This document shows positions 6,016-55,947 of a DNA stretch of 64,000 bases, one piece after another. The notes under the pieces were generated by a model that was given only the letters and a program-made list of their open reading frames with translations, had not been told where the DNA came from and did no database searches. The stretch spans positions 49,352,001 through 49,416,000 of the forward strand of contig NC_086383.1 in the NCBI RefSeq assembly GCF_036588685.1. Reading direction: 5' to 3'. Source of the DNA: Mytilus trossulus. Taxonomy: Eukaryota. Position numbers and translations under genes: made by a program. Position 1 is the stretch's first letter. Every line of letters starts with the position of its first letter.

Positions 6016-6614
6016 TCACTGTCGTTTGATAAATATGTCATCATCACATTCATAATAGGACGTCATTCCAGCTAGAGATTCTAAGCTAGTAAAATCATTT
6101 GCAGCCACATAATACACTTGACTAGGGTCAAACAAGACGCTTACAAAATTATCATACGAGCAATCCTGACCAGCCACAATACCGACAACCTCGATACGTG
6201 ATTGTTGTAGCAGAGTTACTTCTCTTTTTATACCATCAAAATTCTGCCATTTTCCATCGGAAACGATAACTATAATCTTCCTCTTTGAACTTCTACCTCC
6301 ATTTGAAGATAAAAAACCTTTCTGGTTGAGTTGATTCAATGCATAGCTTAAATTGGAAGTCAAACTCCTTTTTCTGTCTACTTGAAGAGCTGTGGCCACC
6401 ATTTTATCCGTATTGTTCGACCAAGACAAAGGAAACACCTGGGATATGTTATTTGTGTATGAATACAAACCGATATGTGCATCATCATTATAACGGACTA
6501 CTTTTTCTATAACACGTCTTATTGCTTCTTGTCTTGTTCTGTATCCGACAGAGGTTTGGTTGATATTTTTGTCTTGTAGAATTATGATATCTGTATCGGT
6601 GTGTCGAGTACAAT
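6016..6614 (-). CDS. Paralog 1 terminal exon: VWA domain 2 (degenerate MIDAS)
   Basis: 599 nt, TAG acceptor at 6615-6617, TGA at 6016; HIGLYSY, GGR, KIIVIVSDG, VVGIVAG VWA strands. Confidence 0.92.
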
Positions 6615-8554: not shown

Positions 8555-8852
8555 CTGTGCAATCTCTGTGTGATGTCTCTCTAAGGAGTTTGTTGTATAT
8601 ATCATCAAAATGTAGCAAATTAAACGTATACTCTGGTTTATTTGAAATATCTATCATCTCCGAATGATCGATAGCTCTTCCAACTGCAACTGTCATGATT
8701 GATCTGATTGGTCGTCTATACGCCGGAAGTCGATTTAAAGTGTTAACATACTCTTCAGCACTATATCGGTCTGATGACAGCCCATCGTAAAGTAGTATGA
8801 TGTGTTGTGATGCTTTGCCTAGCCTAGATCCACTTGTCGTGCTCTGCGCTAT
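8555..8852 (-). CDS. Paralog 1 coding exon 7: VWA domain 1, C-terminal half (IILLYDGLSSD, MTVAVG)
   Basis: 298 nt, CAG acceptor, GTATGT donor; overlaps ORF 8544..8858. Confidence 0.92.
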
Positions 8853-9196: not shown

Positions 9197-9480
9197 CTCA
9201 ACAGCTTTTGACAAAGCCAGTTTAGTGTACGTTGGCGAATGATTTCCATGAATTTGTTTAAGTGCCTCTTTAATGTCCGTCTTCGATGAAAAGTCGTTAA
9301 AATCGAATAAAAGGTGAGCCTGGAATCCATATGTGATGACAGAAAACTGATACTCGTTTTTGCCCATCGGAAGTTTATTTACAAATTTAGATATAAATTC
9401 TACTGTACGATTTATATCATTTTCCTGGCTACTTGAGGTGTCCACAATAAATGTTATATCTGCATGCCCTGGTCTACAGT
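9197..9480 (-). CDS. Paralog 1 coding exon 6: VWA domain 1, N-terminal half (ADITFIVDTSSS MIDAS)
   Basis: 284 nt, CAG acceptor, GTATTT donor; DxSxS motif; overlaps ORF 9179..9445. Confidence 0.92.
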
Positions 9481-10053: not shown

Positions 10054-10167
10054 CCTTTTCACATGTTGTTCCGTTAAACCGTTTGGAACAGTCACAAGAA
10101 AAGTCAGCCCATCTATCGTTACAATTTCCTCCGTTTTGACATGGTGCAGCCAAACATTCATTTTTAT
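10054..10167 (-). CDS. Paralog 1 coding exon 5: calcium-binding-type EGF DKNECLAAPCQNGGNCNDRWADFSCDCSKRFNGTTCEK
   Basis: 114-nt phase 1-1 exon with D-x-N-E-C and C-x-D-x4-F-x-C consensus. Confidence 0.92.
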
Positions 10168-11080: not shown

Positions 11081-11194
11081 CTGTTCTGCAGTCTGTTGCT
11101 TCATCCCATCCGGGAGTACAATTACACATGTGACTTCCAATCAAGTCATGACATGTTCCACCGTTGTAACATGGAAGGGATAGGCACTGGTCAT
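11081..11194 (-). CDS. Paralog 1 coding exon 4: EGF-like domain DDQCLSLPCYNGGTCHDLIGSHMCNCTPGWDEATDCRT
   Basis: 114-nt phase 1-1 exon with the 6-Cys EGF pattern. Confidence 0.92.
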
Positions 11195-11839: not shown

Positions 11840-11957
11840 CTGAGCAACCTGTATTCCAATAATTAGGACATCGCCGTGGTGAGGTCAGATAGCAAGTTTG
11901 TGTTGGTATGCAGAACGTACTCGTACAGTGGCTTTCTCTTAAATATTCGCTTGGATA
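11840..11957 (-). CDS. Paralog 1 coding exon 3: Cys-rich segment YPSEYLRESHCTSTFCIPTQTCYLTSPRRCPNYWNTGCS
   Basis: CAG acceptor, GTATGG donor, 118 nt; 5 Cys and PTQTCYL conserved with 24899-25010. Confidence 0.85.
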
Positions 11958-13779
11958 CTGAAGCAGTAAACAAAATTTGCATAATGTTTAATTGTTTTTA
12001 GAGAAATGAATAACATAAGGCTTAAAATGACGATGAGGTTGTTTTACACTATCTATGGTTTCATGGGTTTTCTATTTGAATTATAATGGGATGGTACATG
12101 CAAATTAGAACTGATCTGCGCTCGTTTGTTGTGTTTCGAATTCAACTTAGCATTCAAACTTAAGATCAGTTGCTACATTGAAAGAACCGTAACTCCCGAA
12201 TAATTGCTTCTATTGTTTTGTTTTCAAATCGAATGACATTGGTTAGAATATACACAAAAATAACATGAATAAATATCATTTGCTAGATTAAAGATTTTTT
12301 TCTCGCTAATCCATTTCCTGTTTTAATTTCAAGAGAGAAATTAAATCTCTACATACTTCGATTGAATGTTTGCTACTACAACAATCATCATTTATTAACA
12401 AGTTAGTGGGCAGATTACATGGGAAAGTCTATATATACGGAAGATATATATATGAAGATGTGGTATAGTACCAATGATACAACTCTCCATCCTAGTCATT
12501 ATATGTTAAAAGTAAACAATAACAAGTAAAATTACGGTTACCAACACGGAGCCTTGGCTCACACCGAAAAGCAAGCGATATAAGCCACCGAAAAGGCAAG
12601 AGTAAAACAATTACCAATTCAAATTGGAAAACCAACGGTCAAATCTATGTAAAAAGAGGTGCGAGAAATTACAAATACAGAACAACAGATTCATGACAGA
12701 CACCAACCTTCACCTAAACCTTAAAAAAATGTACGTTAATTACAGTACAAACAGACACACTATAATATATCAATTGAAATGGCTTAACTCAATCAAAAAG
12801 ACATGCATTGTGTATTATCAAAAGTATATATGAAATATATATTTTTGTTTTTTTACTTGGCCATGGATAAGTAGTTGATTAAAATCGGAACGATAACACG
12901 ACAGTACTTAAAATACATGAAATGTCTTTCAGATTCTACATATAATGTATGTCGTTCACCCTGCGAATGCTGTTGATCATAAGTTACACAGTATTCTAGT
13001 GACCTGTAATTCAGTGGTTGTCGTGTGTTTTACATAAATAAGGCCGTTAGTTTTCTCGTTTGAATTGTTTTACATTGTCTTATCGGGGCCTTTTATAGCT
13101 GACTATACGGTGTGGGCTTTTCTCATTGTTGAAGGCCGTACGGTGAACTATAGCTGTTAATGTTTGTGTCATTTTGGTCTTTTGTGGATAGTTTTCTCAT
13201 TGGCAATCATACCACATCTTCTTTTTTGTAGTCCGATAAATATGGTTTCAGTGCATTTCGTATGGAGTGAGAGCAAAGCTTGAATTCCCATATGGATTTG
13301 TCTGACCCATATATATCATATAAGTTCACTAGTACACTGTATAGCGAATGTATCTCTCCGACTATCTTAATATGTGGTATTTGCACTAGTGGCCTAAAAA
13401 AAGTGTTGTTGTCTTCAATATTTTTGTATTGGTTTATACAAAAACAAATGTCAACAATAACAACTTTTTGGTTTAAAATATTTGTTATGAATTTATTTTA
13501 ATCGTTCATCATCAACTTCATCACCTGTTGAAACCTATCAGATTTCTACTCAATGCCCAATTGTTATTACCAAGAAACGTAAGACCACTACTTACCGCAT
13601 ATTGAAATAAACCCAGCAAAATTACCCAGTATGAAATATTCATGGTCTCTACCCGTTTGTTTTTACCAATCATATTGATTGAAATGTATAAGAGGGAAGA
13701 TATATATAATATAACAAGGCTTTGTAAATTTATTCAAAAATAGTCCAGGAAAATTAATATGTTACTATATAATTCATAC

Positions 13780-13928
13780 CATGCAGATTGGTATATTTTC
13801 AACACAAAACTCGTTATTGTTGTTTCCACATCTAAAATCACTTCTTTTATGCCGATTTATCAGGAATGATTTGGCGATGCTGGCAGGTAAATTCCATGAA
13901 ACTTTGGACGAGGCAACATCTTCCCTCA
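13780..13928 (-). CDS. Paralog 1 coding exon 2: propeptide with furin-type site and first 3 Cys (..SSKVSWNLPASIAKSFLINRHKR/SDFRCGNNNNEFCVENIPICM)
   Basis: CAG acceptor, GTATGA donor, 149 nt; strongly conserved with 26529-26674; overlaps ORF 13774..13971. Confidence 0.85.
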
Positions 13929-14644
13929 CTGTTTTTTCATAATATAAAAATTTCATTTTAATAGCCAACATTTCTATTTGAAAAACAATTTATTATTAAA
14001 GTCGGGTATATTTAATGAAAAAAATAACTTTTCGTTGCTTTTTTTTTTTAAGAAAACTAATAATTGTAAATAAATTATTAATGACCTGAAATAAGATATG
14101 TTTCAAAAATGCGAAGATAACTTTCATATGAAAAATGAATATTAAAAGCGCGTTCGCTTTTCCTCTGAATATTATTTCATTTTCGTACTTTTTTGTATTG
14201 TTGTGTTTGTATATTTTTGTGTTATCAACACATACATAAACATGTACATGTAAATATACTTCAAATACGATATATTTGATAAAAAAAAAATCGGAAAGTA
14301 AACTCCAGTTGTTCATATTCTTGTTAACTTATTCGACCACAAAATTTAATTCACCTAAAGAAAAATTAGGAGAGGTGGTAATGAAAAGTATGATTGACTA
14401 TGAGACAATTATATATTAAATGGTTTGTATATATATCTTGTTTAAGTTGGCACATTGATTAGTAAAGCATATAAAACAGTCGTTTCACTTATTAAGACAA
14501 TGTTGTTATGAATTTGTTTAAGGTGTGGTTTGAGGTTGTGTTGCTGTTTATGTTTGTGAATACGGAATGTTCTTTATCAATTCCAATAAACGTTAAAATT
14601 GCAATAAAAAATATGTTTGAATACGACTTATTTTGAGTTATTAC

Positions 14645-14687
14645 CTAAAAGCAGTATCACGTATGTCAAAAGTTCACATAATATCAT
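14645..14687 (-). CDS. Paralog 1 coding exon 1: signal peptide MILCELLTYVILLL
   Basis: ATG, hydrophobic run, phase-1 donor G|GTAATA; acceptor at 14699-14701 just upstream; homologous to 27885-27927. Confidence 0.75.
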
Positions 14688-16294
14688 TTTTGATGTATCT
14701 GAAAAAAAGAGTAACTGAAAATTAATGTACTGTGAAAGAACAGACGGAGAAAATATCTAAAGCAAGTTTCAAAGTAGACATTTATGATTTGTAGTTCACA
14801 AATCTCAATGAAACATTAAAAAATTGTGAAAGATATTTGAATTTCCTATAATTGTTAATGTTTGTGTCATTTTGGTCTTTTGTGGATAGTTGTCTCATTG
14901 GCAATCATACCACATCTTCTTTTTTATTGTTTCTTCAGAATGTTTCAAATTAAAAACAGGATCTAACATTCTATTGTTTTTACTGTGGGATAGTTGACAG
15001 AGCTCCATTACGTGGATGAATTACGGTATGTTACATGTTTTTCATGTATCTTTCCTAAGCCATGTACATGTATTCGATCAGTTACCGTTTAAATTTTGTA
15101 TTTTAGTTCGGACCGTATGGTTTCTTGTTTTAAATGTTGATCATTAAATTTTCCTCATCGTGATGCCTTTCATAGAGTTTGGTACATTGCTGAAGACCTA
15201 AATTGCTAATATTTTTGTACTTTGTTCTTGAATATAATGCTGAACATTGCCTTATCACAAAGCCAGTTGGCTGTACATGTAACACAATATGTCTTTAAAG
15301 TCTCAGTGAGTGGATATTCTCTTAAGGGACACACACTTAACCTGTAAACTAATCTCTTTTTCAAACGAGGCGCCAAAATAAAAAAATGTAGAAAATATAA
15401 ATAAGGAAATAAAATATTTAAGAAAATTAAGAAAAACTATCTAATTATATTTAACATACATTACCGTATAAACACTCTGGCAGCTAAAATCATTCAAGAT
15501 AACAAATGGCGATTGATTAATATAAAAGGACTTTATTTGGTTGCTTATCTAAAGCTTTGAATTACTTGTATATTTCGTTTTATTTACCTTTGTAGCTGAA
15601 CATAACGATTTCTTTAATAATACATGTTTACACTAAGATAGCAAATAAATTTGTCAATCATGTGTTCCCTCTTATTGGATTTTTTTGTTTTCATATACAG
15701 ATATAAAAAATAATTTATTTATGTATGTAAAATTAACTTTATCATATCTGTAACTAGAATGTACAGTACTTTGTTTGTGCAAAGTATGTAATCATGATCA
15801 CTGCGATAAAAACAGATATTCTAACAGTTGATATAAAAAAAATTAACTTGATATCAATATAGGACAGGCAGATTGTTATTGACCCGTCGTAACGGAATTG
15901 ATGTTACTCAGGTACTTCCGTACCTTTTACGGTGTCTAACTTTAGCCTGTCTCAACCAAATGTTATATTACTTATATACATTGCTTATTACCACAAAAAA
16001 CAGATCAAGTTTTAATTTTTGTCGCATTACTATTACTGTTCTTCGATAATGTCCTTTTATAATGCTGTGTGCAAGTAGGGTCAGCATTTGTGTTCCATGG
16101 ACACAGTCCTCTTTATTTTTTTCTGAAATCTTTAGATTTTATTAGAACATTGCATTTATGTAAAATTTAAATTTTAAAATAAAAACTAATAATTGTTCTA
16201 AAGTTGTTCCCGAAGGTATGTCTATTTTACTCCACTACAAAGGAATGAAATTATGTTATATTATATCACCTTAGGCCAACATTTGGTTTTATAT

Positions 16295-19742: not shown

Positions 19743-20341
19743 TCACTGACGTTTGATAAAAATGTCGTTATCACATTTATAATAGGACGTCATTCCAGCA
19801 AAAGATTCTAAGCTAGTAAAATCATTTTCAGCAACATAATACACTTGACTAGGATCAAACAAGACGCTTACAAAATTATCATACGAGCAATCATGACCAG
19901 CCACAACACCGACGACCTCGATATGTGATTGTTGTAGCAGAGTTACTTCTCTTTTCACATTAGCCAGAACCCGCCAATTTCCATCAGAGACGATAACAAT
20001 AATTTTCCTATTTGAACTTCTTCCCCCATGTGAAGATACAAATCCTTTCTGGCGGAGTTGGTTCAGGGCATAGCTCAAATTGGAAGTCAAACTCCTTTTT
20101 CTGTCTACTTGAAGAGCTGTGGCCACCATTTTATCCGTATTGTTTGACCAAAACAAAGGAAACACCTGGGATATGTTATTTGTGTATGAATACAAACCGA
20201 TATGTGCATCAGCATTATAACGAACTACTTTTTCTATTACACGTCTTATTGCTTCTTGTCTTGATCTGTATCCCTCAGACGTTTGGTTCATTTTTATATC
20301 TTGCAAGATAATTATATCTGTGTCTGTGTGTCGCATACAAT
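19743..20341 (-). CDS. Paralog 2 terminal exon: VWA2
   Basis: 599 nt, CAG acceptor at 20342-20344; ORF 19743..20387. Confidence 0.92.
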
Positions 20342-21043: not shown

Positions 21044-21341
21044 CTGTGCAATCTTTGTGTGCTGTGTCTTTAAGTAATTTGTTGTATATGTCATCAAAAT
21101 GCAGCAAATCAAATGTAAGCTCTGGTTTATTTGATAGCATGACCATTTCTGAATGATCGACAGATCTTCCAACTGCAACTGTCATAATAGATTTGATTGG
21201 TTGTTGATATACCGGATGTTGATTCAAAGATATAGCATAATTTTCAGCGTCATGTCGATCTGATGACAATCCATCGTAAAGTAGAATAATGTAATGTGAT
21301 GCGTTGGTAAGCCTAGATCCACTAGTCGTGCTCTTTGCTAG
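21044..21341 (-). CDS. Paralog 2 coding exon 7: VWA1 C-half
   Basis: 298 nt; overlaps ORF 21036..21269. Confidence 0.92.
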
Positions 21342-22998: not shown

Positions 22999-23112
22999 CC
23001 TTTTCGCAAGTTGTACCATTAAACCGCTTTGTACAGTGACAAGAAAAATCAGCCCATTTATCTGTACAAGATCCTCCGTTTTGACAAGGTACTGTTAAAC
23101 ATTCATTCTTAT
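22999..23112 (-). CDS. Paralog 2 coding exon 5: cbEGF DKNECLTVPCQNGGSCTDKWADFSCHCTKRFNGTTCEK
   Basis: 114 nt, CAG acceptor, GTAAGC donor. Confidence 0.92.
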
Positions 23113-24412: not shown

Positions 24413-24526
24413 CAGTACTGCAGCTTGTTGCTTCATCCCATCCGGGAATACAATTGCATCTGTAATTTCCGGTTAAGTCATGGCACGATCCTCCATTACT
24501 ACATGGAAAGGATAAGCACTGGTCAT
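24413..24526 (-). CDS. Paralog 2 coding exon 4: [41 protein letters not shown]
   Basis: 114 nt, AAG acceptor, GTGAGT donor. Confidence 0.9.
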
Positions 24527-24898: not shown

Positions 24899-25010
24899 CT
24901 GTGCATCCTATTTGCCAATGACCAGGGCATGGAGTAGCGAGATAGCAAGTTTGTGTTGGTAAACATGACGAACTTGTACATCGGATTTCTCTTGAGTTTT
25001 CGTTGTGTTG
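24899..25010 (-). CDS. Paralog 2 coding exon 3: QHNENSREIRCTSSSCLPTQTCYLATPCPGHWQIGCT
   Basis: TAG acceptor, GTATGT donor, 112 nt. Confidence 0.85.
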
Positions 25011-26528: not shown

Positions 26529-26674
26529 CATGCATATGTGTTTGTTGTGTTCACAATACCCTTCAACATCGTCACATCTAGGATCACTTCTTTTGTGTCG
26601 ACTTGTCAGGAATGATTTAGCAACACTAGCAGGTAAATTCCATGAAACTTTGGACGAAATAACCTCTTTTGTTG
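26529..26674 (-). CDS. Paralog 2 coding exon 2: TKEVISSKVSWNLPASVAKSFLTSRHKR/SDPRCDDVEGYCEHNKHICM
   Basis: CAG acceptor, GTATAT donor, 146 nt; homologous to 13780-13928. Confidence 0.85.
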
Positions 26675-27654: not shown

Positions 27655-29146
27655 GCAAGCCTCGCGCTTCAAATATTTAAAATTTAACTATCTCGAGTGG
27701 AGAAATATCTGAATACACTTGTTTCAGTTGTGAAATCTATATTTATACGAAGAGTTGATTTGTACCGATTGATTTGGTAACAAAAAAATGAGGAAGTTTA
27801 TCTAAGAATTCAAACAAAACGATTAGGTTTAAGTACAATAAATGATAGTCATATTTGTGAATAAGTTATTTTTGTGTTACTTACCTAAACATAGCATTAT
27901 GCATATCAAAATTCTATTGCAGATCATCTTCTTAATAATTCGACCCATCTAAAACACATTTTCAAATATGGATTGTTTCATATGAAATAAATCAACAGTA
28001 AAGCGTTCATGACAATAATGCATTTTACTTTTATATAATTATCAGCATTATGGTTTATCATATAATTATAGTATCAAACCTTACAAAATATTGCAAAATC
28101 CAGTACATTATCTAATGCACTTTTAAAAACCTTAACAGAAACATTTGAATATCTAAACATACCTTACCAAAAATACTAAAAGTTTCAATCATTCAGATTA
28201 AATTAATAGACCAAACAAATATACCCTACTCTTATCAGTGACATATTCGATTTCGTTTTTGTCTACCGATATAAAAATTTAAAGCATTTATTCGTGATGA
28301 AAAATGTTGACCTTATCTAAACATTTGACACAAGGAAGTGCCGAACCGAAATTTGGCGGGAAATGTAATGAATAATTATTTTTCAAAATTCAGTAAAAGA
28401 GCAAGCCTCGCGCTTCAAATATTTAAAATTTAACTATCTCGAGTGGAGAAATATCTGAATACACTTGTTTCAGTTGTGAAATCTATATTTATACGAAGAG
28501 TTGATTTGTACCGATTGATTTGGTAACAAAGAAATGAGGAAGTTTATCTAAGAGTTCAAACAAAACGATTAGGTTTAAGTACAATAAATGATAGTCATAT
28601 TTGTGAATAAGTTATTTTTGTGTTACTTACCTAAACATAGCATTATGCATATCAAAATTCTATTGCAGATCATCTTCTTAATAATTCGACCCATCTAAAA
28701 CACATTTTCAAATATGGATTGTTTCATATGAAATAAATCAACAGTAAAGCGTTCATGACAATAATGCATTTTACTTTTATATAATTATCAGCATTATGGT
28801 TTATCATATAATTATAGTATCAAACCTTACAAAATATTGCAAAATCCAGTACATTATCTAATACACTTTTAAAAACCTTAACAGAAACATTTGAATATCT
28901 AAACATACCTTACCAAAAATACTAAAAGTTTCAATCATTCAGATTAAATAAATAGACCAAACAAATATACCCTACTCTTATCAGTGACATATTCGATTTC
29001 GTTTTTGTCTACCGATATAAAAATTTAAAGCATTTATTCGTGATGAAAAATGTTGACCTTATCTAAACATTTGACACAAGGAAGTGCCGAACCGAAATTT
29101 GGCGGGAAATGTAATGAATAATTATTTTTCAAAATTCAGTAAAAGA
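27655..29146. repeat. 746-bp near-perfect tandem duplication (27655-28400 / 28401-29146)
   Basis: Constant 746 offset; about four substitutions seen by eye. Confidence 0.95.
27885..27948 (-). CDS. Paralog 2 coding exon 1: signal peptide (MGRIIKK)MICNRILICIMLCL
   Basis: TAG acceptor directly before ATG 27948, second in-frame ATG at 27927, donor G|GTAAGT; duplicated at 28631-28694. Confidence 0.75.
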
Positions 29147-29764
29147 ACAATCAAACAAAAAGCGTCTGGGCTAAACATTTGATTGTCGAATTACACAACT
29201 TTTTAAAAGAGTATTCTTAACTTTAGGTTTTAATTTTTACTGTTATCACGATCATAGTCTACACGATCATGTATACATTAACTGCTATTTAATAGCTCTA
29301 TTTACCAACCGGAAACAAATTATGAATCTCCGAAAGAATTAGATAATAAGGCTGTGATTGGTACTTCAACGCGAACAACCTTGAAATGACAAAAAGGTCA
29401 GGTTTTTCCTTTACGATATCATCTGTTTGATATAGGAGAAACCTTGTATTGAGGGGTTGTCTCATTAACAAAGCTTTGTATCTTTTATCAGATTATTGAT
29501 GTTTACAAATTAATTTCAAATTTATTGACATTAACTTGAATAATTTAGAGGCCTTTAAAAAGACCATCAGAGATCGGGGGAATATAACGAGTGACATTAT
29601 TCGGATTTGATCAACATCAAAAACAAATGATTTAATTATCTATTGAATAAACGCTACCTAATTCAATCTGTGATAACGACAGAGAAATTATTGGATGTTT
29701 AGTTTATATTTGATAAGTTTTACCGCCAGATATACAATACTTCGATATGCACTGTGTGACTTAA

Positions 29765-36606: not shown

Positions 36607-39006
36607 AATTTGTTTTGGTTATGGCAGTTAATTTGTAAAAGTGGCTATCAGTTCATTTTTCCGGTTTTTCTTTGAGTTGGCTGTAATAGCAATCCTTTGA
36701 AAATATGTAATGTAAAATACGTTTGAATTTTTAATAATTTCATAAAACTGCGAACAATGAAATTCCGGGTTTTTTTTTTTTTAATTTAAAAATTGAACCT
36801 AGGTAAAATACCTGTTTATCAAATTAATCAATTAATAAATATCGTTCATGATCATTTAAGAAAATTTCAAAACAAGTACGATTTTCCACACATAATTCAG
36901 ATGATGTACTCATGGCCAATGCGTGATACTAAGATCAGATTTGTATTTATCATGTACTGAACTTAAAATATATCCCAGTGAATACAATCATTATGTGATT
37001 CAAGGAGGATACATCATGTTTATTTTCCATTAAGCTTTTCGAATAGAATCAAGTACAAAGTATGATATATAAGGCGATGTTTTATCTCCTTAATGCATAA
37101 AATTATTGAATTATTGACAAATCGAAAGAGATGCGTCACTCTTTTTTTAAGCATGTTTTATATCTTCAAATAAAAAAGTTTTATACATAATAACAAAGTA
37201 ACAGTTCGACTAAAAAGCATTGTTTAACTTTGTATATATATCAAAATCTGACGGAAACTAATTAAAGCAAATGTTTATCAAAATGATGACGTCAAATATC
37301 AATTGCCAATTGTCACCAATTGTTCTCCGTGTTTTCCCACTATTCATGTCAATATGATAAATTGTGTAGTTTTGTCTGATGCCCTATCGTACAACTGTCC
37401 GTTCGGTACATTCTTACGTAACTGTCCAAATTATAAGTCAAGAGTATGTAATTAGTTACGACCAGTTGTTGTCATTCCTTTCTGTTTATTATATTCTCGT
37501 TTAAAACGTTTAACATTTTGTCGTATCGGGACCTTTTACTCCTTACTGTCCTGATGGGTTTTGTGCATTGTTGAAGATATGAGTAGCAAGAACGTTTAAT
37601 CATTATAGGTGAAATCGTCAGTCTACCCCTAACTTGAGTTATTGCTCTTCCATGACTACACTTCACCAAAGCCAAGGGTTTTTGTCTATATTCATTTTCC
37701 ATTAACTGAGAGAAATTTTGAATAGCAATTTTTATAGGCATTTTTTTTTTTTACAAATAAAACAGGATACATCAGTTGATTAAAAATATACCTTATTGTT
37801 GTTGAAGATGTATGTTTACACGTTTCCATACTTCCTATATTTTTTTGGTATAAGAAATTACAGCAAACAAAGATTGTATAAACTATACTAGACACAGAGT
37901 AAGAAGTAAAACGAAAAGAGAAATATCAAGAACATGAGATTTACAAATACTCCACACGAGAAAAAATGACACAGAAATTAACAATTAGAGGTTACCGTAC
38001 GGCCTTCAACAATGAGCAAAGCTCATACCGCATAGTCAGCTATAAAAGTCCTCGAAATGACATTGTAAAACTATGTAAACGAGAAAACTAAAACGGACTT
38101 ATTTAAGTAGTCTTATGTAGACGAGACGCGCGTCTGGCGTACTTAATTATAATCCTGGTACATTTGATAACTATAAAGTACAAAAAATGAACGAAAAAAC
38201 AAATGTGTAACAAAGAAACAAACGACAACCACTTAATTACTCAATACTCTTCAACTTCGTACTTTATTTGGCCTTTTTAAATTTTTTGGAATCGAGCGTC
38301 ACTGATGAGACTTTTGTAGACGAAACGCGCGTCTGGCGTATATACAATAAATTTAGTCCTGGTATCTATGAAGAGTTTATTTACAGGCTTCTTAATTTTC
38401 TACGGGAATCTGATTTTGTATGAAAATTCATTGTTTTGTTCATTAACTATGAAATTAGTTATGGTTACCAAAGACAATGTGTGGTTCGGATAGGCCATAT
38501 TTCAATGTTTGTTCTTCCAAAAACTATTGTTTGATTTCAAACACATACGAATTTTATTGAGAATTCTTAAGAACTATACACAAGACAACATGGATAAGCA
38601 CTCTCACACATGTATTTCAAAATAATGCAACCTTGCTCCCCTTGTCTAATTTATTAATCATTACACCTCTAAGTGAAAATTTATGACACCATGGGCAGTC
38701 TGACAAAAGAATGGATGCATTAAAATTAGCATTCAAAATTGGATATCATTATATGTGTATATCTATAATAAAAGTAAATTTCTGATTAAAAACAGCATCT
38801 AAATGGATGAAAAATTATCAAAAACATGTAGATACATGAGAAGGGTGTTGCATTACACCTAATGAATAACTTACACTTATCTCAAATGACCACCTACCGT
38901 ATTATTAATTACGCGTGTAACTTAATGCCACATGCTATATTATTTTAATATCAAGATTATATAGGGTATACATTTATATGTCTAAATGGAAAACAAGTAT
39001 TGAAAC

Positions 39007-40020
39007 ATGGAACGTCCTTCAATTCGTGTCTTTGTGAGATGCGTTCTATTCATTTGTGTATTTTTGTCGACCGGAATTGTGTCTTTTTCAGCCACCAAAA
39101 CAAGTTCTAATATTGAAAATGAACCACAAAAAGAACCGCAATCTGTATCCAGTAACATTAACATGGATGCTGACTTTTCGGAATCCAGAACTTCAAATGT
39201 GATTGAGCTTGCGTCAGTGGAAAATCAAACAGGATCACAAGAATTAGATGCTCTTTTTATGAATGATCCTTGTGCTAATTTTTCAACTTGCTCATTTATT
39301 GCTCAGACAAAAACAAAATTCTGTAAATGTGATGAAGACTGTATAGACTTTAATGATTGCTGTAACGGGGTAATATTTCCAAATGCCACACATGTTGTTA
39401 ATGACGCTTATTTGAGATACGAATGTCTACAAAATAATAGACACTTGCTGTTTGATGGTGTTTACGTAAGTACGAAATGTCCGAAGACCGCCAACTCAGC
39501 AGATAGTTCTTTGTGTGACGTCAGCAGTTTGCTAGAAGTTGGACCATGGGTTGCAGACGAACAAGGAAGACTCTACAAAAACCGACACTGCGCCATTTGC
39601 AATGGCGTATCAGTATTGACATTCCTAGATGTCAAGATTACAAACGTCGAAAGTGAAATTCTTAGAGTAAAATTTGAAAATTTAACAGCACATGAGAAAT
39701 TGTTTGAATTGTACTATGGTAAATATACTAACGTAAAATATGTAATACCACCGGAAGTGCAACAAAGATACTGTTTACCTACTAAAATTAGTGCGAAGGC
39801 ATCCTCTCAATGCCAACAATATGGGACCAGTCCAGTAGAAGCCGATATGGTAACCTACAAAAATATGTATTGTGTTCCTACTGATTACACCTATTCGTTT
39901 TGTTTAGGACCAGGAATTGATTTTACTCGCGATTATGGTTATGGTTATGGTTTGGATTTGATGCTTCCACTCACAGTCTTGTTTTCATTTAAGGAATCAA
40001 AGGATGCTTGCCAAACTCAG
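39007..40020 (+). CDS. 7TM receptor exon 1: signal peptide, SMB-like domain (CKCDEDCIDFNDCC), YKNRHCAICNG and YKNMYC motifs
   Basis: 340-aa ORF with a CAG|GTAAAC donor at 40020/40021. Confidence 0.9.
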
Positions 40021-40910
40021 GTAAACTGATATATTTAATAGTGTATTTTTGGGGATATCTATTTTGCGCCTATCTTTTACCGTCTTTATATTCACCAATA
40101 GTAAATTCATCGAAAGTTGATATTTATCTATGTTGCCATCTAGATCTTAATTCTTGTACTTTCCTGTACATCTCGAATTGTTCGGACATTTAGATTATGA
40201 AAATGTTTGCACAGTTTCAAATTATCGTATGTATACTTTGGTACAACACGTGAGTCATAATAGGATTAATACATTTCAATTTTGTCGATTAGTCAAGACA
40301 AACGTAGCATATATAAGACAAAATACATTTTTTTTAATTTTATTGTTATGTTTCTTCATGCTATAAGATTTACTAGGTGCAATAGTATGTTTACCCTGAA
40401 ATTTTCATTTATGTGAGTGAATAATATAAAAATTGCATTTTCTGGATGATAATATCACTCCTAACAATACTGCTATACATATTCTTAAATCATTCATTAT
40501 TGGGGTTTTTACAGGGAATATGTGGTGGTGATTGTTTCAAATTATGACTGTAAATTAAAAATTGTTCACATTGGTAATGTTTTAATTACCATAAAATACA
40601 TTGTTAAACATGTTATAATGATTGGTTTAAATCTAAGATGATTTTTTTGGTATTTGTTTTCCATTAGCTTGAAAGGTAAAAGAATAAGTAACACCACATG
40701 ATAAATTTATGATTATATATTTTTGTATGGATTTATTGCCGACTGAAAGCAGTCTTGGTAACTATTTTCCATTACCAGAAGTCAACCATTGCAAAATAGT
40801 AGTTAGTTTACATCTTATAAGTGAAAAAACCCTATTGTTTTTATATAGCTTTCTTTAGTTTACATTGTCATTTTCTTATTCTAAGCATTTACACAAATAT
40901 TTCATTATAG

Positions 40911-41234
40911 ATCAAAGGGTTATGTCAATCTGAAGAAACCTACACCAATGCAAGAGTAGAAATCCAATTTTCTATCATAGCAAATGACACCGTAGAACCA
41001 GACGCTTTTAGACAGATTGCTATCGGTATGGTATTATCGACCGTAGTTCCAAACATAACATACCTGGATTACATATATGTACCTAAGATTAGCCAAAATG
41101 TATCGACACTTCCCCTGGTCAAGGTCATTTTGTTTATAAAGTCGGAGTTGACTCTAGAAGAGTACCGAACTTTCCCGCAGACACTGCAAAATTTGAAATG
41201 GAAAATGATCATGATTTCGGAAAAATCAGGCAAG
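40911..41234 (+). CDS. 7TM receptor exon 2: ectodomain (IKGLCQSEETY...ISEKSGK)
   Basis: TAG acceptor, AAG|GTAAAC donor, 108 codons, in frame with ORF 41028..41246. Confidence 0.8.
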
Positions 41235-42728
41235 GTAAACATATAGTCAATAATATAAGAAGACACACAAATAAAAGTGGGGTTTGGGAATAATAATATC
41301 TAGAAAGGACACAAAAAAACATGGGGGAAAATACCTAAAACAAAAACAACGCATATAATGAAAAACTAAAAACTGCGGTATAATTGCATATGAAACAACT
41401 CTCCATTAGAAATAAATATAACGTACAAATTTACACGTTTACAACTTCAGAAACGTTTGTTATTTTAAGTATTTAGAACTACCATGTGTTTCCATTTATA
41501 AGACACGATGTGAAAACATCTTCATACCAAATCCAAAACGTTAAGTATTCTTTTATGTTTAACTTTGTATCAAGGTCTGGATGGGGTGTGGGATGTTTAA
41601 TTTTCTCTATTTACAAGGTTTTTTTATATGAATAACGCTCATTCTTGTAAAATCCTCATGTGAATGATTTTACTTTAAAAACAATCTGGGCATTATTTTC
41701 TATTTTGTTTGCCAAATCCAGACCCTTTTGTGTTGACTCTTGTTTTCTTTTGTTGGTATTTTTGTTTTTCATTGTTTGTTTCCTATTGCATTCACTATAT
41801 AGCTAGCCTTAATTGCAAAATACATGTATTCCAAAGGAAATGTATAATACAAAAATAGATTATGTTGCTATTTCATTCGTTCTTAAAGGAACACTTCATG
41901 TTAATGATATAAAATGACAACATTTGAAATTATAAAAAGTCATATCTATGGTACTTCATTATTTTTTTACTTCTAATTGTTTCGTTTTTGTTGATTTTTA
42001 TTTGAAAGTCTTTAAAATATGATAGTTTAACATATTAGTTATTCAGTTTCTTAGTACACCAAAACAAGCACATATTAAGTAATGCTGTATTTTAGCTTTT
42101 AACCGACTTACCTTCAATGCAAAAGACTTCGACTTTTGTAGGACATTTGAAAAGTACCATATACCCTTACTTTTGTTCTTTTCTCAGTCTAAAATCGGAA
42201 AAGATGATCACTCCAAAATACCAAATGCCCCAATAATAATTAATCTTAAACCGTCATATACAGTACTTCATTGTAACATTCTAGATTCAGTTAGTAGAAA
42301 CTAGTTGTCCTTTAATGTAACAATGATCGTACTTTTAGTTTTCCATTAATATCCTATTATAGTACTGGTGTCTGGTGACTAAAAATTAATTGTTAACTTT
42401 GAAGTTGATGTCCTAAGTCAGGTATTGTAATAATAATCTTTGGTTGTTGTCATAAATGATTTTTGTTAATAGTTTGTAGCTTAAATAAGGTAAACCGAAA
42501 ATCGTTCATTGTAAACTAATTGGTATAGTTCCAATCACACCGCATCTACTTCTTTTAATAAGTACTTTTAAATTAATATGAATACCTACCAGAAAAATAA
42601 ACATCTAGTATATGTACGTTTAGATTTCCGTGTGTATGTTAAAGATAAAAACAAGTTTCCTAAAACATTGATATTTTTAAAACTCACGTTTTTTCTACTT
42701 ATTTTGTCTGTTTTAATTCTTTTTGTAG

Positions 42729-43943
42729 GTTATTGAAATGATCACCGATGTGAATGTGCAACAGAGTAGTGTCTTCAATCATTTATATGAAATCTACGAC
42801 ACAGACGTTAGCTCAATCATACAAGAGTACAGTTTACAGTCCCACATATTCTTGGAAAACTTTCCTTGTACAAATATAAGTATCGATAGCTTTCTTAATG
42901 ATAGTAGACATCCACATATTCTGAGTATAAATACCGTTTCATGTGAAGATGAACAGAATGAAATGCAACAAAATCACGCACCAAATCTCGTAAACGAGAA
43001 TGATGAGTATATTACTTATATTACCTATACCGGAACATGTTTGTCTGTCATAAGCCTAATCTGTTCTGTCGTTGTGTGCAGGCGTTCTGGTCTGTCGACT
43101 TCTATTCCAGGTTCAAACTTAGAAAATCTTTCAGTTGCCCTTATTCTAGCTAATCTGTTATTCCTGACTGGCATAGGAGCTAAAAAGTATCAAAATGTTT
43201 GCACAGTGATAGGCATTGTCTTACATTATCTGTGGTTGCTCGTTTTCTCCTTTATGTCTATATCAGTAATTTACTTGGTCTATGACGTCAGGAGAATAAG
43301 CATTAGCACAACAACAAACAAAAGGTGCTGTGTTTGTGCTAAGCACTTTCTAACTATGGCCGGTTTGTTGTTACCATTCGTTTTCGTTGTTCCTGCAATG
43401 GTTTTAGAATTTATTTTCCCGACCACACAATTTTCGCCTAACTATGGCGGAGCGATCTGTTTTCCAACAGCTTACCCTGCCAATTTACTCTTTGTCTCTG
43501 GCCCTTTAATGATTTCTGTCGGTTTAAACATAATCTGTATTACAATTTTAACTATATATTTCAATATTAAAGAAGGAGAGGCAAGTAAGATAAGAGAAGG
43601 AAATTACAGTCAACAAATTGGTATTTTTTTACGTTTGAGTGTAATTTCGGGACTATTTTGGATAACGGGCACCTTGAGTTCAGTTCTTCAAAGTGAGGTT
43701 TTAGATTACATCTTTGTTGTGACTTGTAGTCTACAAGGGTTTCTCATTGCTGTAGCTAATCTTACTACAAAACGTGTATTCAGAAACAAAAACAAGTCAT
43801 CATTCAGGACATCAACTCGAACATTAAGTCGATCTAGTAGAATTCTAACTAGAAAACCCACAGGTTATCCCCGCAAAACACTTGAAAAAAGGAGGCTAAG
43901 TCAAAATTCCTCCAACACTCTTGTTGTTGCCAGTTTGTCCTAG
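42729..43943 (+). CDS. 7TM receptor exon 3: stalk, all seven TM helices and a Ser/Thr/Arg-rich C-tail
   Basis: 401-aa ORF with class-B motifs: ITYTGTCLSVISL, NLSVAL, CTVIGIVLHYLWL, PNYGGAICF, SGLFW, SLQGFLI. Confidence 0.93.
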   Translation, partial: VIEMITDVNVQQSSVFNHLYEIYDTDVSSIIQEYSLQSHIFLENFPCTNISIDSFLNDSRHPHILSINTVSCEDEQNEMQQNHAPNLVNENDEYITYITYTGTCLSVISLICSVVVCRRSGLSTSIPGSNLENLSVALILANLLFLTGIGAKKYQNVCTVIGIVLHYLWLLVFSFMSISVIYLVYDVRRISISTTTNKRCCVCAKHFLTMAGLLLPFVFVVPAMVLEFIFPTTQFSPNYGGAICFPTAYPANLLFVSGPLMISVGLNIICITILTIYFNIKEGEASKIREGNYSQQIGIFLRLSVISGLFWITGTLSSVLQSEVLDYIFVVTCSLQGFLIAVANLTTKRVFRNKNKSSFRTSTRTLSRSSRILTRKPTGYPRKTLEKRRLSQNSSNTLVVASLS

Positions 43944-51948: not shown

Positions 51949-53997
51949 TTGTCCTGTAGTTAGAAGGTATTGTTTGCAACGGGATTAATAAGTTTCAATG
52001 CAATTTTTTTTCAGATAGATCTTTACTATTATTACAGTACATTCTCTATGATTGGTTTGAATAAAAAAAAAAAAACATACGATATAATCGTTTATTGAAT
52101 TTTATTTTTTATCGATATATTTCAATTGGAATTTATAATTTGTTATTTTTCCGATCAGAAATGTGTTTAATACGTAAATTTCAAAATAATGCCCTTCATT
52201 TGAACATTACTTTACAAAACAAATGAGATTCAATTATAGTAATGTATTATACATTAACTGACCGTATTGTTTGTTTAAACTAGTTATTTGACAAATTGAT
52301 ACTCAGGGTTAGTGACATAGATATGAATAAAATGAGATAACGTCTTTCGTCTCAACTCGGCTGATTCCGTACCCTCATTTAGCGGATTGTACCGAGGATT
52401 GCCGAATGGGGATGTAGTATGATTGCCAATGAGACAACTATCTACGATGCTGAGTTCAAATGACGAAGATTTTTTTGCCGTAAGTCGTTGATTCTTCTCT
52501 GGTGATATGGCTTTCGACATTAAAATATTGCGTTTGCTGCCATTGCTGCTTTAAAAAAGGGATGAAAGACACCAGAGGGATGGTCAAACTCATACATCAA
52601 AATAAACTGACAACGCCATGGCTAAAAAAGAAAATGACAAACAGACAAATAATAGTATACAAGACACAACAAAAGACTTTTGCAACACGAACCCCACCGA
52701 AAACTGGGGTGATCTCGGGTGCTCCGGAAAGGTAATCTTCCTGCTACATATGTGGTCCCCGTCGTGTATCTCGTGTTATCAAAACCTGGTAAAAAGACTA
52801 ATTCGGTAGGTCACCTTCGTGAAAAGGGAATGCGATTGTAGTTACGACATAAGGAAAATATCCGATATCATCTTGATAGCGGTTATTTAAATACCGTCAA
52901 CCAACAAGTGATGGCGTCCGTAAATTTACGAAGGGATGATCTCAAATTCACCATTTTGAACTCTTGGTTTATTAGCTTCCTTGTGAGCAGCAACCACCTT
53001 GGATAACTATTTCTTACTTTTTGATATGGTTGCCAAAGCTTAACGGATCGTGACACTTCTTTTCTCGTAATTACATGATAGTTTTCTCGTAATTTCGAGA
53101 TGAAACAAATATTATCTCGTAATTACGCGATAAATATATTTTTTGTGTGACCCTTATAGGCTTTCGTATATACATCATGGTGGTTGGAATCAAATACTCT
53201 ATTTTTTTCGAGATAATATAACTGCATTAAGTTAGCTGATTTCTTGCTACCTATTTTAGATATCAATAAAGGGTTTTGTTCATGTTTGGATACTTTGGGT
53301 CTGTTTTAAATTGTAGTTTAATTAGTCTAATAGAAAGCATTAAAATAATAAGTTACAAATTACATTTTGCTTTCTAATTCAATGATTACATTTTCATTCC
53401 CAGGTGACTTTAAACATCATCAAATATGTTTCAACCTAATTTTAAGCATTTTAAAATAAATGACAACAAAATGAGTTTCACATCAGCACTAACTCAATCC
53501 TATGGTATACATTATACGTTTCCGGTTTCTGGTCAAATACAAACAGACTGTGCTGCATGATGTCATTTTAATTGTATTACTAATACGTTGTTGTGTCTTT
53601 TAAAAGTTTTATGAGTGCTATCTGTCATTAAATTATTGCTTACATTATTGTTAATCATTATTTCAAAGCTCTTTTCTATTTGTTTAAACTGTTACTTAAA
53701 AGTAAACATACGTAAACCCCCGTCAGAACAACCCATTATTTGTCTGTTTAATTATTTCTGCAATTTGATTTCTTGATTTCCCTTGATTCAGAATATTCTG
53801 TAATGACAGTAATACAAAAGATTTTAATGGGTGTTTTTCGAGTCAACATTAAATTTTCAAAAGGTTAAAAACACAGTACAAATCGACAATCTAGTCACAA
53901 AACGTGTAACGACGTCAGCATTTAACTTTTAAATATTAAAAACAATAAAGAATCCTTCAGTTTTATTTTGGATTTTAGTCATTCATCACTTCTAATA

Positions 53998-54324
53998 ATG
54001 CACAACCAAAAGGATATGCTGCCAATCGTCTTCTTTTGCATAATATCAATAATACTCAAAATCTGCAACTGTTACTGCAACAACGATGAAAATGTTACCG
54101 GTGGTGCCTTCACTGGTGGTATCTATATGGATTCGTATGTCATAAGGGCACACTCTGGTACCGGGCCGAAAATGTGTATTAGGGATTGTTTATTACAATC
54201 AGATTGCAATGCCGTAAATTTCAAAAAAGCCGACTGGACGTGTGAATTGTTATCCATTTCAGGAGGGGATCAGTCGACGGTACAAGCAGGTTTTTATTAT
54301 TCATCGATTACAAAATGGACTATG
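53998..54324 (+). CDS. Signal peptide + PAN/apple-like domain (CIRDCLLQSDCNAVNFKKADWTCEL)
   Basis: C-x3-C-x5-C-x-A-V-N-F-x6-C-E-L PAN pattern; donor ATG|GTAAGA; start at 53998 or 54016; acceptor at 53977-53978 implies an upstream UTR exon. Confidence 0.85.
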
Positions 54325-55947
54325 GTAAGACTATTTTTTATGAACTATATGGGTAGAAAAGACACGCACATGTTGTAAAAATGATACATTTCATAATTAT
54401 ATGTATCTCTTTGAAACCTTTTGTATTTTTAAGTTTGATCAAATCTCTGAATATTTTTTTTTTGTATGTTATTTCGTGAATATTTATGATTTATTCCATC
54501 TTGATGCGACCTTTACAAGTTTTTTTTTATAGCTGAATTAGATTTTGAATAATACGGCATATTCACCACGCTCAAAACGTCGCGCGCTTTTACGTGTATA
54601 ATTATGGTAAAATCGTTTGATGCATAGCTGTTTTTGGTAAATAATTGTCATTACATACATAATGTCCTGTCTCGGAATATTTTTTCTGTAAAAATTTAGT
54701 TAAATTGACGTTGGCCTAAGAGAATCTCAATCAAATCACATATTTACCTCACCAAACGATAGTAATTGGAAAAGTACTACAGTACTTAAAACATATACAT
54801 TATGATGACGGCCAACAAACTATTAGTTTTAAGAATATAAAGTAAAAGATTTAAAAAAATATATAAACAAAAGGAAAAGAAACGACTGACACAACTCTGC
54901 ATCAGAGTTTACATGTTAATGACGTTTTACAAAAAGGGTTAAAGTTATTTTATGTCATGACATGGCTATGTTTAATCTCCACTTAAAAATGATCATTTAT
55001 GATTTTCAAAAAGTAGTTGTTACATGTATCAACCATAACCGATTATCAAAAAATACTTTTTTTCAATCATTTGCGATAATTAAAAAGTTATCGACTGTTT
55101 TAGTTAATAAGTGTTTCCCTTGAACTTAGTAATTCATTTCTTCTTGAGTATTTGATCTAAATACATTTCTTCAGTCTGTAGCTTTTTCTTATTTTTCGCT
55201 GTATATTGCTAATGATAATGTTTGTCAAACATTTGTTGAACACTGTAAAAATCTCCATGAATTAGATTTATTTAAGAATTGAATTCTCTTTTTTGTAAAT
55301 TTATTGGGGTGTAAAAGCATTGACCGAAGTACAGTGGAGATCACTTCTAACCTCTCATTAAATCTGTCAGGAGAACTGTTCCAGAACAGTACGTAGAACT
55401 GTCAGCCTGACAACTTTTAGTCAGTTCTAGGTTAGAACTGTTCTAGCTAGAACTGATTTGGTCAGTTCTACCTAGAACTGATCCTGACAGTTCTACCCTA
55501 GAACAGTTTTAGACAGTTCTAGCTAGAACTGACCAAATATTTAGAACAGTTCTACCTAGAACTGATCCTGACAGTTCTAGCTAGAACTGACCAAATATTT
55601 AGAACAGTTCTACGGTTAGAATTGATTTCTAATTTTACGGCTAGAATTGATTTTTAAAAATTCTACGGTCAGAATTGATTTATAAATTCTACGGCTAAAA
55701 TTAAATTATAAATTCTACGGGTAAAATTGATTTAAAATCCTACGGCTAGAGTTGATTTATAAGTTTTAAGAACTCTTTGCCTTAATTATATAAAGGCTTG
55801 GGTAAAAAAACGATTTAAATTATGTAGAGTTTTGCTATTTTGCGAGTCGGTTTTATTTCAGATTTATAATCGGCAAGAGAACATGTTGAACCTGTTAACC
55901 CCGTCATATTCTGCATGTATGTGCCTGTTCCAAGTCAGGAGCATGTA

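Follow-up and report, generated by a model that had tools for sequence, protein, structure and literature searches.

An unnamed propeptide and eight-cysteine module in bivalve EGF-VWA proteins, with a putative carboxylase-docking leader

Two tandem genes in the window

The window, a stretch of 64,000 nucleotides from Mytilus trossulus (GCF_036588685.1, NC_086383.1, positions 49,352,001-49,416,000), contains two neighbouring, intact genes that lie in tandem on the minus strand. These genes, A and B, have eight coding exons each, which encode, in order, a signal peptide, a propeptide, the tetrapeptide RHKR, a domain with eight cysteines (the 8-Cys domain), two EGF domains and two VWA domains. 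The features are as follows, in window coordinates.

Near 15467-15497, minus strand: gene A 5' untranslated exon, where a loose contig end matches
14645..14699, minus strand: gene A exon with start codon and predicted signal peptide (coding 14687-14645), placed by a match to the M. edulis ortholog and by a contig joint
13780..13928, minus strand: gene A exon 2, with propeptide, RHKR and the first three Cys of the 8-Cys domain
13843..13896, minus strand: gene A GGCX-type leader, with W(-17) N(-16) L(-15), A(-10) and F(-7) L(-6) in factor IX numbering
13854-13843, minus strand: gene A RHKR, the end of the leader
11840..11957, minus strand: gene A exon 3, with E-x-x-R-E and the last five Cys of the 8-Cys domain
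11081..11194, minus strand: gene A EGF1
10054..10167, minus strand: gene A EGF2
9197..9480, minus strand: gene A VWA1, first half, with the DxSxS metal-site motif
8555..8852, minus strand: gene A VWA1, second half
6016..6614, minus strand: gene A VWA2 (without DxSxS) and stop codon
27885..27927, minus strand: gene B signal-peptide exon, with a second copy at 28631-28673
26529..26674, minus strand: gene B exon 2, with propeptide (26642-26589), RHKR and the first three Cys
24899..25010, minus strand: gene B exon 3, with E-x-x-R-E and five Cys
24413-24526 and 22999-23112, minus strand: gene B EGF1 and EGF2, matched by model P0003
22033-22316 with 21044-21341, and 19743-20341, minus strand: gene B VWA1 and VWA2, matched by model P0003

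Exon 2 ends at AG/GT in both genes (13928/13780 in gene A, 26674/26529 in gene B), with phase 1 on entry and phase 0 on exit. All internal junctions of both genes are likewise AG/GT, and the intron phases are 1-0-1-1-1. The two spliced frames are open over 572 and 569 amino acids with no internal stops, giving a predicted mature product of about 525 amino acids with the 8-Cys domain at its head. Signal peptides were predicted by eye; the propeptide comprises about 22 residues and the 8-Cys domain 55-60. The initial annotation quoted the exon translations at 13780-13928 and 26529-26674 correctly, on the minus strand, and the CxE...C...ExxRE strings to which it drew attention are real, though a phase-0 intron splits them and leaves E-x-x-R-E in exon 3.

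A DxSxS/T/D site marks a VWA domain as a metal-dependent adhesion domain. This site is complete in VWA1 (D197, S199, S201, T267 and D301 in the numbering of P0003, the database model of gene B), and VWA2 lacks DxSxS. The Mytilus trossulus database model P0002 matches the last exon of gene A with 100% identity. That model omits the signal, propeptide and 8-Cys exons (11840-14699), yet RNA contigs splice them in.

Several other observations concern the window. A 750-bp tandem duplication with 5 mismatches at 27655-29150 contains the two identical gene B signal-peptide exons, and is either real or an assembly artefact. A likely adhesion-type GPCR gene occupies 39004-43943 on the plus strand; it includes an exon for a secretin-family 7TM region (E 1.4e-11), a Cys-rich exon with a weak somatomedin B match (E 1.1) and a middle exon at 40911-41246. 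An open reading frame at 53926-54378, also on the plus strand, combines a PAN domain (E 1.5e-4) with a predicted signal peptide.

Splicing of the propeptide exon

The joint between exons 1 and 2 of gene A (13928/14645) is present in contigs of all four runs, which derive from four studies; one run is recorded as RNA and three are presumed to be RNA. The letters of the junction between exons 2 and 3 were seen in three of the four runs, and loose contig ends of three runs show where exon 3 starts and how exons 1 and 2 of gene B join. One contig of 1231 bases from run X2 comprises exon 1 (2-56), exon 2 (57-205) and the VWA1 exons (552-1133), and the gap between exon 2 and VWA1 equals the 346 bases that exons 3-5 comprise. 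Contig and window sequences differ at 6-10 letters per 150, and the contigs therefore come from other alleles or sister species. An artefact or an unspliced exon is ruled out by the spliced contigs and intact frames. The gene product proposed earlier, a spliced EGF-VWA protein with a convertase-type propeptide, is supported.

Comparison of the two paralogs

The initial annotation described the leader as almost unchanged between the paralogs while its flanks diverge. The leader is indeed identical at 22 of 25 positions, versus 30% identity in the signal region and 49% in the Cys domain. However, EGF/VWA1 (78% identical) and VWA2 (87%) are nearly as alike, so the leader is conspicuous only beside the segments next to it. 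Across the whole family, few leader positions are kept. A pattern combining leader and furin site occurs at exactly these two places in the six frames of the window, and in shuffled protein at a rate of about 1e-4 per 40 residues.

Gene conversion is unneeded as a cause of the leader identity, because its synonymous differences (5 of 21 codons) match those of EGF and VWA1 (0.28-0.29). In the VWA2 exons (6016-6614 and 19743-20341), synonymous divergence is 0.16, versus 0.24-0.29 elsewhere, which may be a hint of gene conversion between A and B.

A bivalve family with the module

A profile of the N-terminal module was searched against 1.84 billion proteins at E up to 0.001. Thirteen proteins matched, one of which (P0016) is repeat-rich and was excluded as a chance match. 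Named members are from Mytilus, Crassostrea, Ostrea and Ylistrum, and Tegillarca was added by whole-protein search and cluster look-up; the family is thereby found in mussels, oysters, scallops and an ark clam. The module is located in front of EGF-VWA-VWA, of VWA-VWA alone (P0018), of EGF arrays (P0010) and of EGF with a predicted membrane segment (P0020). Databases name members 'matrilin-1-like', 'cartilage matrix protein-like' or 'VWA2-like'.

Median module identity among members is 40%. In an alignment of 20 members, the Phe at -7, the eight Cys, E-x-x-R-E and P-C-P are invariant, and two more Glu, the Ala at -10 and the Leu at -6 are kept in at least 90%. Conservation of the A, F, L and Glu positions in homologs, proposed earlier as a check, is thus borne out by this alignment and by the 23 propeptides considered below. 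The family has no named N-terminal domain, in agreement with the initial annotation, which recognised no named family of this architecture; the propeptide and 8-Cys domain are an unnamed bivalve module. A literature search, with little coverage of subscription journals, found no paper on this module family or on Gla in bivalve proteins. Proteome tables for shell, byssus and mucus could list members.

The Mytilus trossulus genome contains at least 11 module copies, two in the window and nine on contig C4; these are 11 of 14 matches, three matches on C22 having been excluded for stops and E values of 7-8. The C4 copies inspected share the intron position of the window genes. Eight family members form a tandem array at C4:65.03-65.18 Mb, and the ninth is at C4:60.72 Mb. 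In four Mytilus proteins (P0033-P0036), the same VWA pair is preceded by a C-type lectin domain that replaces the propeptide, 8-Cys and EGF part. A lectin in the place of the module suggests a swappable targeting head. These proteins were the intended outgroup of the VWA tree, but they nest inside its mytilid clade, and the tree is therefore without a true root.

The leader and GGCX recognition

RxKR is a furin site. Both window paralogs have RHKR, and among the 20 members the canonical RxKR is found in 13 and only a dibasic site in seven. The A-x-x-F-L helix motif is kept in all 20, including the Ostrea members, in which the furin site has decayed.

Human GGCX structures (PMC13187478) reveal recognition of hydrophobic residues at -17 to -15, a small residue at -10 and hydrophobic residues at -7/-6; PMC12647623 agrees, and PMC5578492 gives the same consensus. 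Phe at -16 is invariant in human GGCX substrates and its loss lowers activity (PMC12647623, PMC13187478). When anchored on Ala, the leaders of both window paralogs match five of the six positions that GGCX reads (W, L, A, F and L). The exception is -16, which is Asn in both.

Among 23 distinct family propeptides, -15 is I, L or V in all, and -10 is A in 21 and S in two. Position -16 is E in five, K in four, I, F and N in three each, V and S in two each and M in one, and so is polar (E, K, N or S) in 14 of the 23; because the sequences are related, these counts are not independent. Three divergent non-mytilid members (Ylistrum P0013, Tegillarca P0091 and P0018) have Phe-Leu at -16/-15, and they form separate branches outside the mytilid clade of the VWA tree. 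As this tree has a midpoint root and long branches, an ancestral Phe at -16 is a parsimony guess.

The mussel genome encodes GGCX (L029/L030, C7:9.708-9.726 Mb), and VKOR is also present. Mussel GGCX keeps Y395, Y415, Y425 and L426, the pocket residues that hold Phe-16 (PMC12647623). Where human GGCX has Arg406, which neutralises an upstream Gla in EE pairs (PMC12647623), the mussel enzyme has Trp. The gene also includes a long tandem repeat of an exon end.

Mussel Gla-core exons

Five distinct mussel exons with a Gla-like core (L031, L037, L038, L040 and L045) provide a comparison. The core loci are as follows, in contig coordinates.

C9:35783838-35783984: Gla-core exon (L031)
C2:43140601-43140747: Gla-core exon (L037)
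C9, 28.49, 44.00 and 43.85 Mb: Gla-like core loci (L038, L039 and L040)
C10:67766272 and C95:477779: Gla-like core loci (L045 and L046), with L045 upstream of an EGF array

The Gla-core exons comprise a GGCX-type leader, RxKR and a short Gla-like core (EEC..C..EE) of the form E-E-C-x(4-5)-C-x2-3-E, and fall below the Pfam cut-off. Two of them were tested by PDB sequence search, and weakly retrieve chains of factor IX, factor X or prothrombin. Position -16 in the five genes is F, L, F, I and S, so a polar residue at this position does occur in mussels (the Ser of L045). The A-x-x-F-L...K-R leader of L037 and L038 also aligns with the start of the mature Gla domain in the factor X chain 9bvl_P, and a single motif may therefore have been duplicated to give both the vertebrate propeptide and the membrane-binding loop.

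Propeptide profiles of the bivalve family and of the Gla-core genes were compared by hhalign in local mode, with 200 column shuffles. They match with a probability of 94.5% and a score of 25.7, which none of the 200 shuffles attained. The comparison is circular in part, since propeptide-bearing queries had served to find four of the five Gla-core exons, which were cut out by a motif pattern, and a generic amphipathic helix before a furin site stays a possible source of the match. With the five GGCX-read positions, this match sustains the likeness to vitamin-K-dependent propeptides that was noticed at the outset, although the Asn in the slot of Phe-16 had been overlooked.

Profiles of the mature parts, compared between the family and the mussel Gla cores, score 7.0, which 123 of 200 shuffles equalled. 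The phase-0 intron appears to follow the core in the Gla-core exons, whose donors were read from the DNA, and splits the supposed core in the window family. The leader is, as far as such profiles indicate, shared with the mussel Gla-core genes, and the 8-Cys domain is not detectably Gla-like. The Gla-core exons are the stronger putative Gla candidates, compared with the window genes.

The 8-Cys domain

Cysteine spacing in the 8-Cys domain is mostly 6,6,11,4-5,5,5,7, and each domain has 4-7 Glu. GGCX modifies Glu and not Asp. Four acidic columns hold Glu in 18, 18, 20 and 20 of the 20 members, which amounts to 76 Glu and 0 Asp in 80 cells. In paralog A, the first two conserved Glu columns are not in exact register. 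E-x-x-R-E is found in 45 of 47 distinct segments, and the other two do not span that part. There are no EE pairs at the conserved Glu sites. In the VWA pair only two of 18 acidic columns are strongly Glu, and in the EGF region two of five; for related sequences, the comparison of 4/56 with 2/378 columns gives a Fisher p of 0.003.

In the AlphaFold2 models short helices precede a beta-hairpin, with domain pLDDT of 63-81 in P0003 and 83-93 in P0014, and the leader is a low-confidence helix. In the P0014 model, the conserved Glu form two i,i+4 pairs on helices 86-94 and 104-113, and one of these Glu is located at a helix start. Fold searches with the model gave matches that all come from the EGF part, and the ESM Atlas gave one low EGF-type match at 0.76. 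PDB sequence searches of the module returned chance-level matches only and no Gla chain. A ShKT-like reading of the first three Cys, suggested by their spacing, was rejected because no ShK appears among the Pfam matches listed (25 of 31 families in one scan). Exon 3 as a degenerate EGF was also considered, and has no Pfam EGF match.

The initial annotation likened the leader to those of UCMA and augurin, and allowed that the family might be gamma-carboxylated or Gla-derived. Neither exons nor full proteins have a Pfam match to Gla (PF00594), UCMA or augurin among the matches listed (25 of 31 families in one scan). In genome searches, the Gla profile gave a single below-cut-off match at another locus and none at the window genes; UCMA (PF17085) gave no match, in a search without a positive control; and augurin (PF15187) gave none at the window loci. 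Two chance-level augurin matches elsewhere in the genome (L058/L059) were discarded. Descent from UCMA or augurin is not supported. Gla-domain descent fares no better, with no profile match, a mature part that scores like shuffles against Gla cores, and a different Cys spacing and intron position.

Interpretation and alternatives

Perhaps the best explanation is that these proteins are carboxylase substrates. The propeptide would dock on GGCX in the endoplasmic reticulum, and the conserved Glu of the 8-Cys domain, including the helical pairs, would be converted to Gla. A furin-type convertase would then cut after RHKR, and the freed head might bind a Ca2+-coated mineral or membrane while VWA1 binds a matrix protein, such that the whole would act as an EGF-EGF-VWA-VWA extracellular adaptor with a Ca2+-binding head. 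We hold this reading tentatively, at slightly under an even chance. It is slightly more likely than not for the family and somewhat less likely than not for the two window paralogs by themselves, which with Asn at -16 would be weaker putative substrates than their Phe-bearing relatives. The reading is favoured because five of six GGCX positions agree, leader positions are kept family-wide and Phe-Leu occurs in three lineages; because the leader resembles that of Gla genes, four Glu columns are free of Asp and the model has helical Glu pairs; and because GGCX pocket residues and VKOR are present, and the helix outlasts the furin site.

Carboxylation has points against it. The polar -16 counts against it, though mussel GGCX keeps the residues that hold Phe-16, and so do the few Glu (4-7) and the lack of EE pairs at conserved sites. 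The mussel Gla-core genes are themselves only putative Gla carriers. Periostin has predicted recognition sequences, yet proved uncarboxylated (PMC4537219), a precedent that counts against carboxylation here.

An ordinary or vestigial propeptide, cleaved by a convertase and serving as a folding aid, sorting signal or N-terminal mask, is a serious alternative, to which we assign a nearly equal chance. The Glu and Arg of a new disulfide-rich domain would then form salt bridges, helix caps or a plain binding surface, with no Gla. Because pure-Glu columns are also found in EGF and VWA, and a Glu is located at a helix start in the P0014 model, a structural role suffices. The polar -16 of 14 among 23 propeptides, the scarcity of Glu and a mature part unlike the mussel Gla cores point the same way. 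Augurin has a similar A-x-x-F-L leader and is not known to be carboxylated. However, four observations call for more than a simple cleaved propeptide: positions -15, -10, -7 and -6 are fixed in their spacing, three separate lineages have the Phe-Leu pair, the leader resembles those of mussel Gla genes, and Asp is absent from 80 cells.

The module might instead be a diverged Gla domain, or a descendant of a UCMA- or osteocalcin-like protein, with small insertions and a beta-hairpin extension. The L037 core, C-x5-C-x2-E-x2-R-E, resembles C-x6-C-x4-E-x2-R-E of the window family; both have the same leader type, and the core part is predicted to be helical. Vertebrate Gla-EGF-EGF genes have intron phases 1-0-1-1-1, which are those observed here. 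Against this stand the lack of Gla, UCMA or augurin matches in the members listed and of Gla chains in PDB searches that do weakly retrieve factor IX, factor X and prothrombin with mussel Gla exons, the shuffle-level score of the mature profiles and the phase-0 intron, which is inside the supposed core rather than after it. Descent from a Gla domain is conceivable but unsupported, and we consider it unlikely.

It is very improbable that the leader instead binds back on the 8-Cys or VWA domain, or on a partner other than GGCX, and imposes latency until cleavage. In favour of such binding, the helix motif of the Ostrea members has survived the decay of their furin site. Against it, this leader is also found in front of unrelated Gla cores and in members that lack VWA (P0010, P0020), and therefore has no fixed internal partner except the 8-Cys domain.

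A bolder form of the preferred carboxylation reading is slightly less likely than the cleaved-propeptide alternative: a bivalve-wide family might be gamma-carboxylated on a new Gla-bearing domain with eight Cys and two helical Glu pairs, which has no relation to the Gla domain and acquired a GGCX-docking propeptide by exon shuffling, and mussel GGCX might tolerate a polar -16. If so, a Gla head would direct proteins of several kinds (VWA adaptors, EGF arrays and membrane proteins) to membranes or calcium mineral, and bivalve GGCX would gain a set of matrix substrates.

Invertebrates have the enzymes for carboxylation but lack a clotting cascade, and fly GGCX knockouts have no phenotype (PMC5578492). 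Few invertebrate substrates are known beyond cone-snail peptides and ascidian Gla proteins. The locus provides a testable candidate set in farmed bivalves with a natural gradient at -16 (Phe, Met, Ile, Val, Ser, Asn, Lys and Glu), for which the five Gla-core exons serve as controls. If carboxylated, the module would be a new Gla-carrying fold and would implicate vitamin K in the matrix or mineral biology of bivalves; if not, it is still an unnamed, expanded 8-Cys domain family. Overall, the initial observation is confirmed and its interpretation partly supported.

Comparison with known systems

On the profile searches above, the window proteins are not filed as UCMA, augurin or Gla-domain proteins, and because -16 is not Phe they are not filed as proven vitamin K-dependent proteins. 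UCMA (Gla-rich protein) is alike in its signal peptide, GGCX-binding propeptide and furin site. It is about 135-138 amino acids long and Glu-rich, with 14 Gla and a mature peptide of 67-74 amino acids, and is reported to be absent from invertebrates (other sources cited are PMC13204790, PMC9146348 and PMC8430550). The window proteins, in contrast, are about 570 amino acids long, modular and Cys-rich, without a PF17085 match. Augurin/ECRG4 also has an A-x-x-F-L helix before a dibasic site, with no profile match at the window loci.

Matrilins, the VWA repeats of collagen VI and VWA2 resemble the window proteins as secreted proteins with EGF and tandem VWA domains. Matrilin-type proteins differ in domain order and lack the propeptide and 8-Cys module, and the window proteins have no triple helix. 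The mussel Gla-core exons share the leader type and RxKR, in one exon after the signal exon; the two cores tested weakly retrieve vertebrate Gla chains, whereas the window family does not.

Vitamin K-dependent precursors (factor IX, factor X, PRRG1, osteocalcin and MGP) differ in that the window proteins have Asn at -16 and four conserved Glu in an 8-Cys domain of other spacing. Those of the clotting type carry a Glu-rich Gla domain and a protease, whereas the window proteins have a VWA pair and no Gla profile match. As in the window proteins, these precursors comprise a signal peptide, a short leader, a furin-type site and conserved Glu, and the leader has hydrophobic residues at -17/-15, Ala at -10 and hydrophobic residues at -7/-6. 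In the clotting factors, EGF modules also come next.
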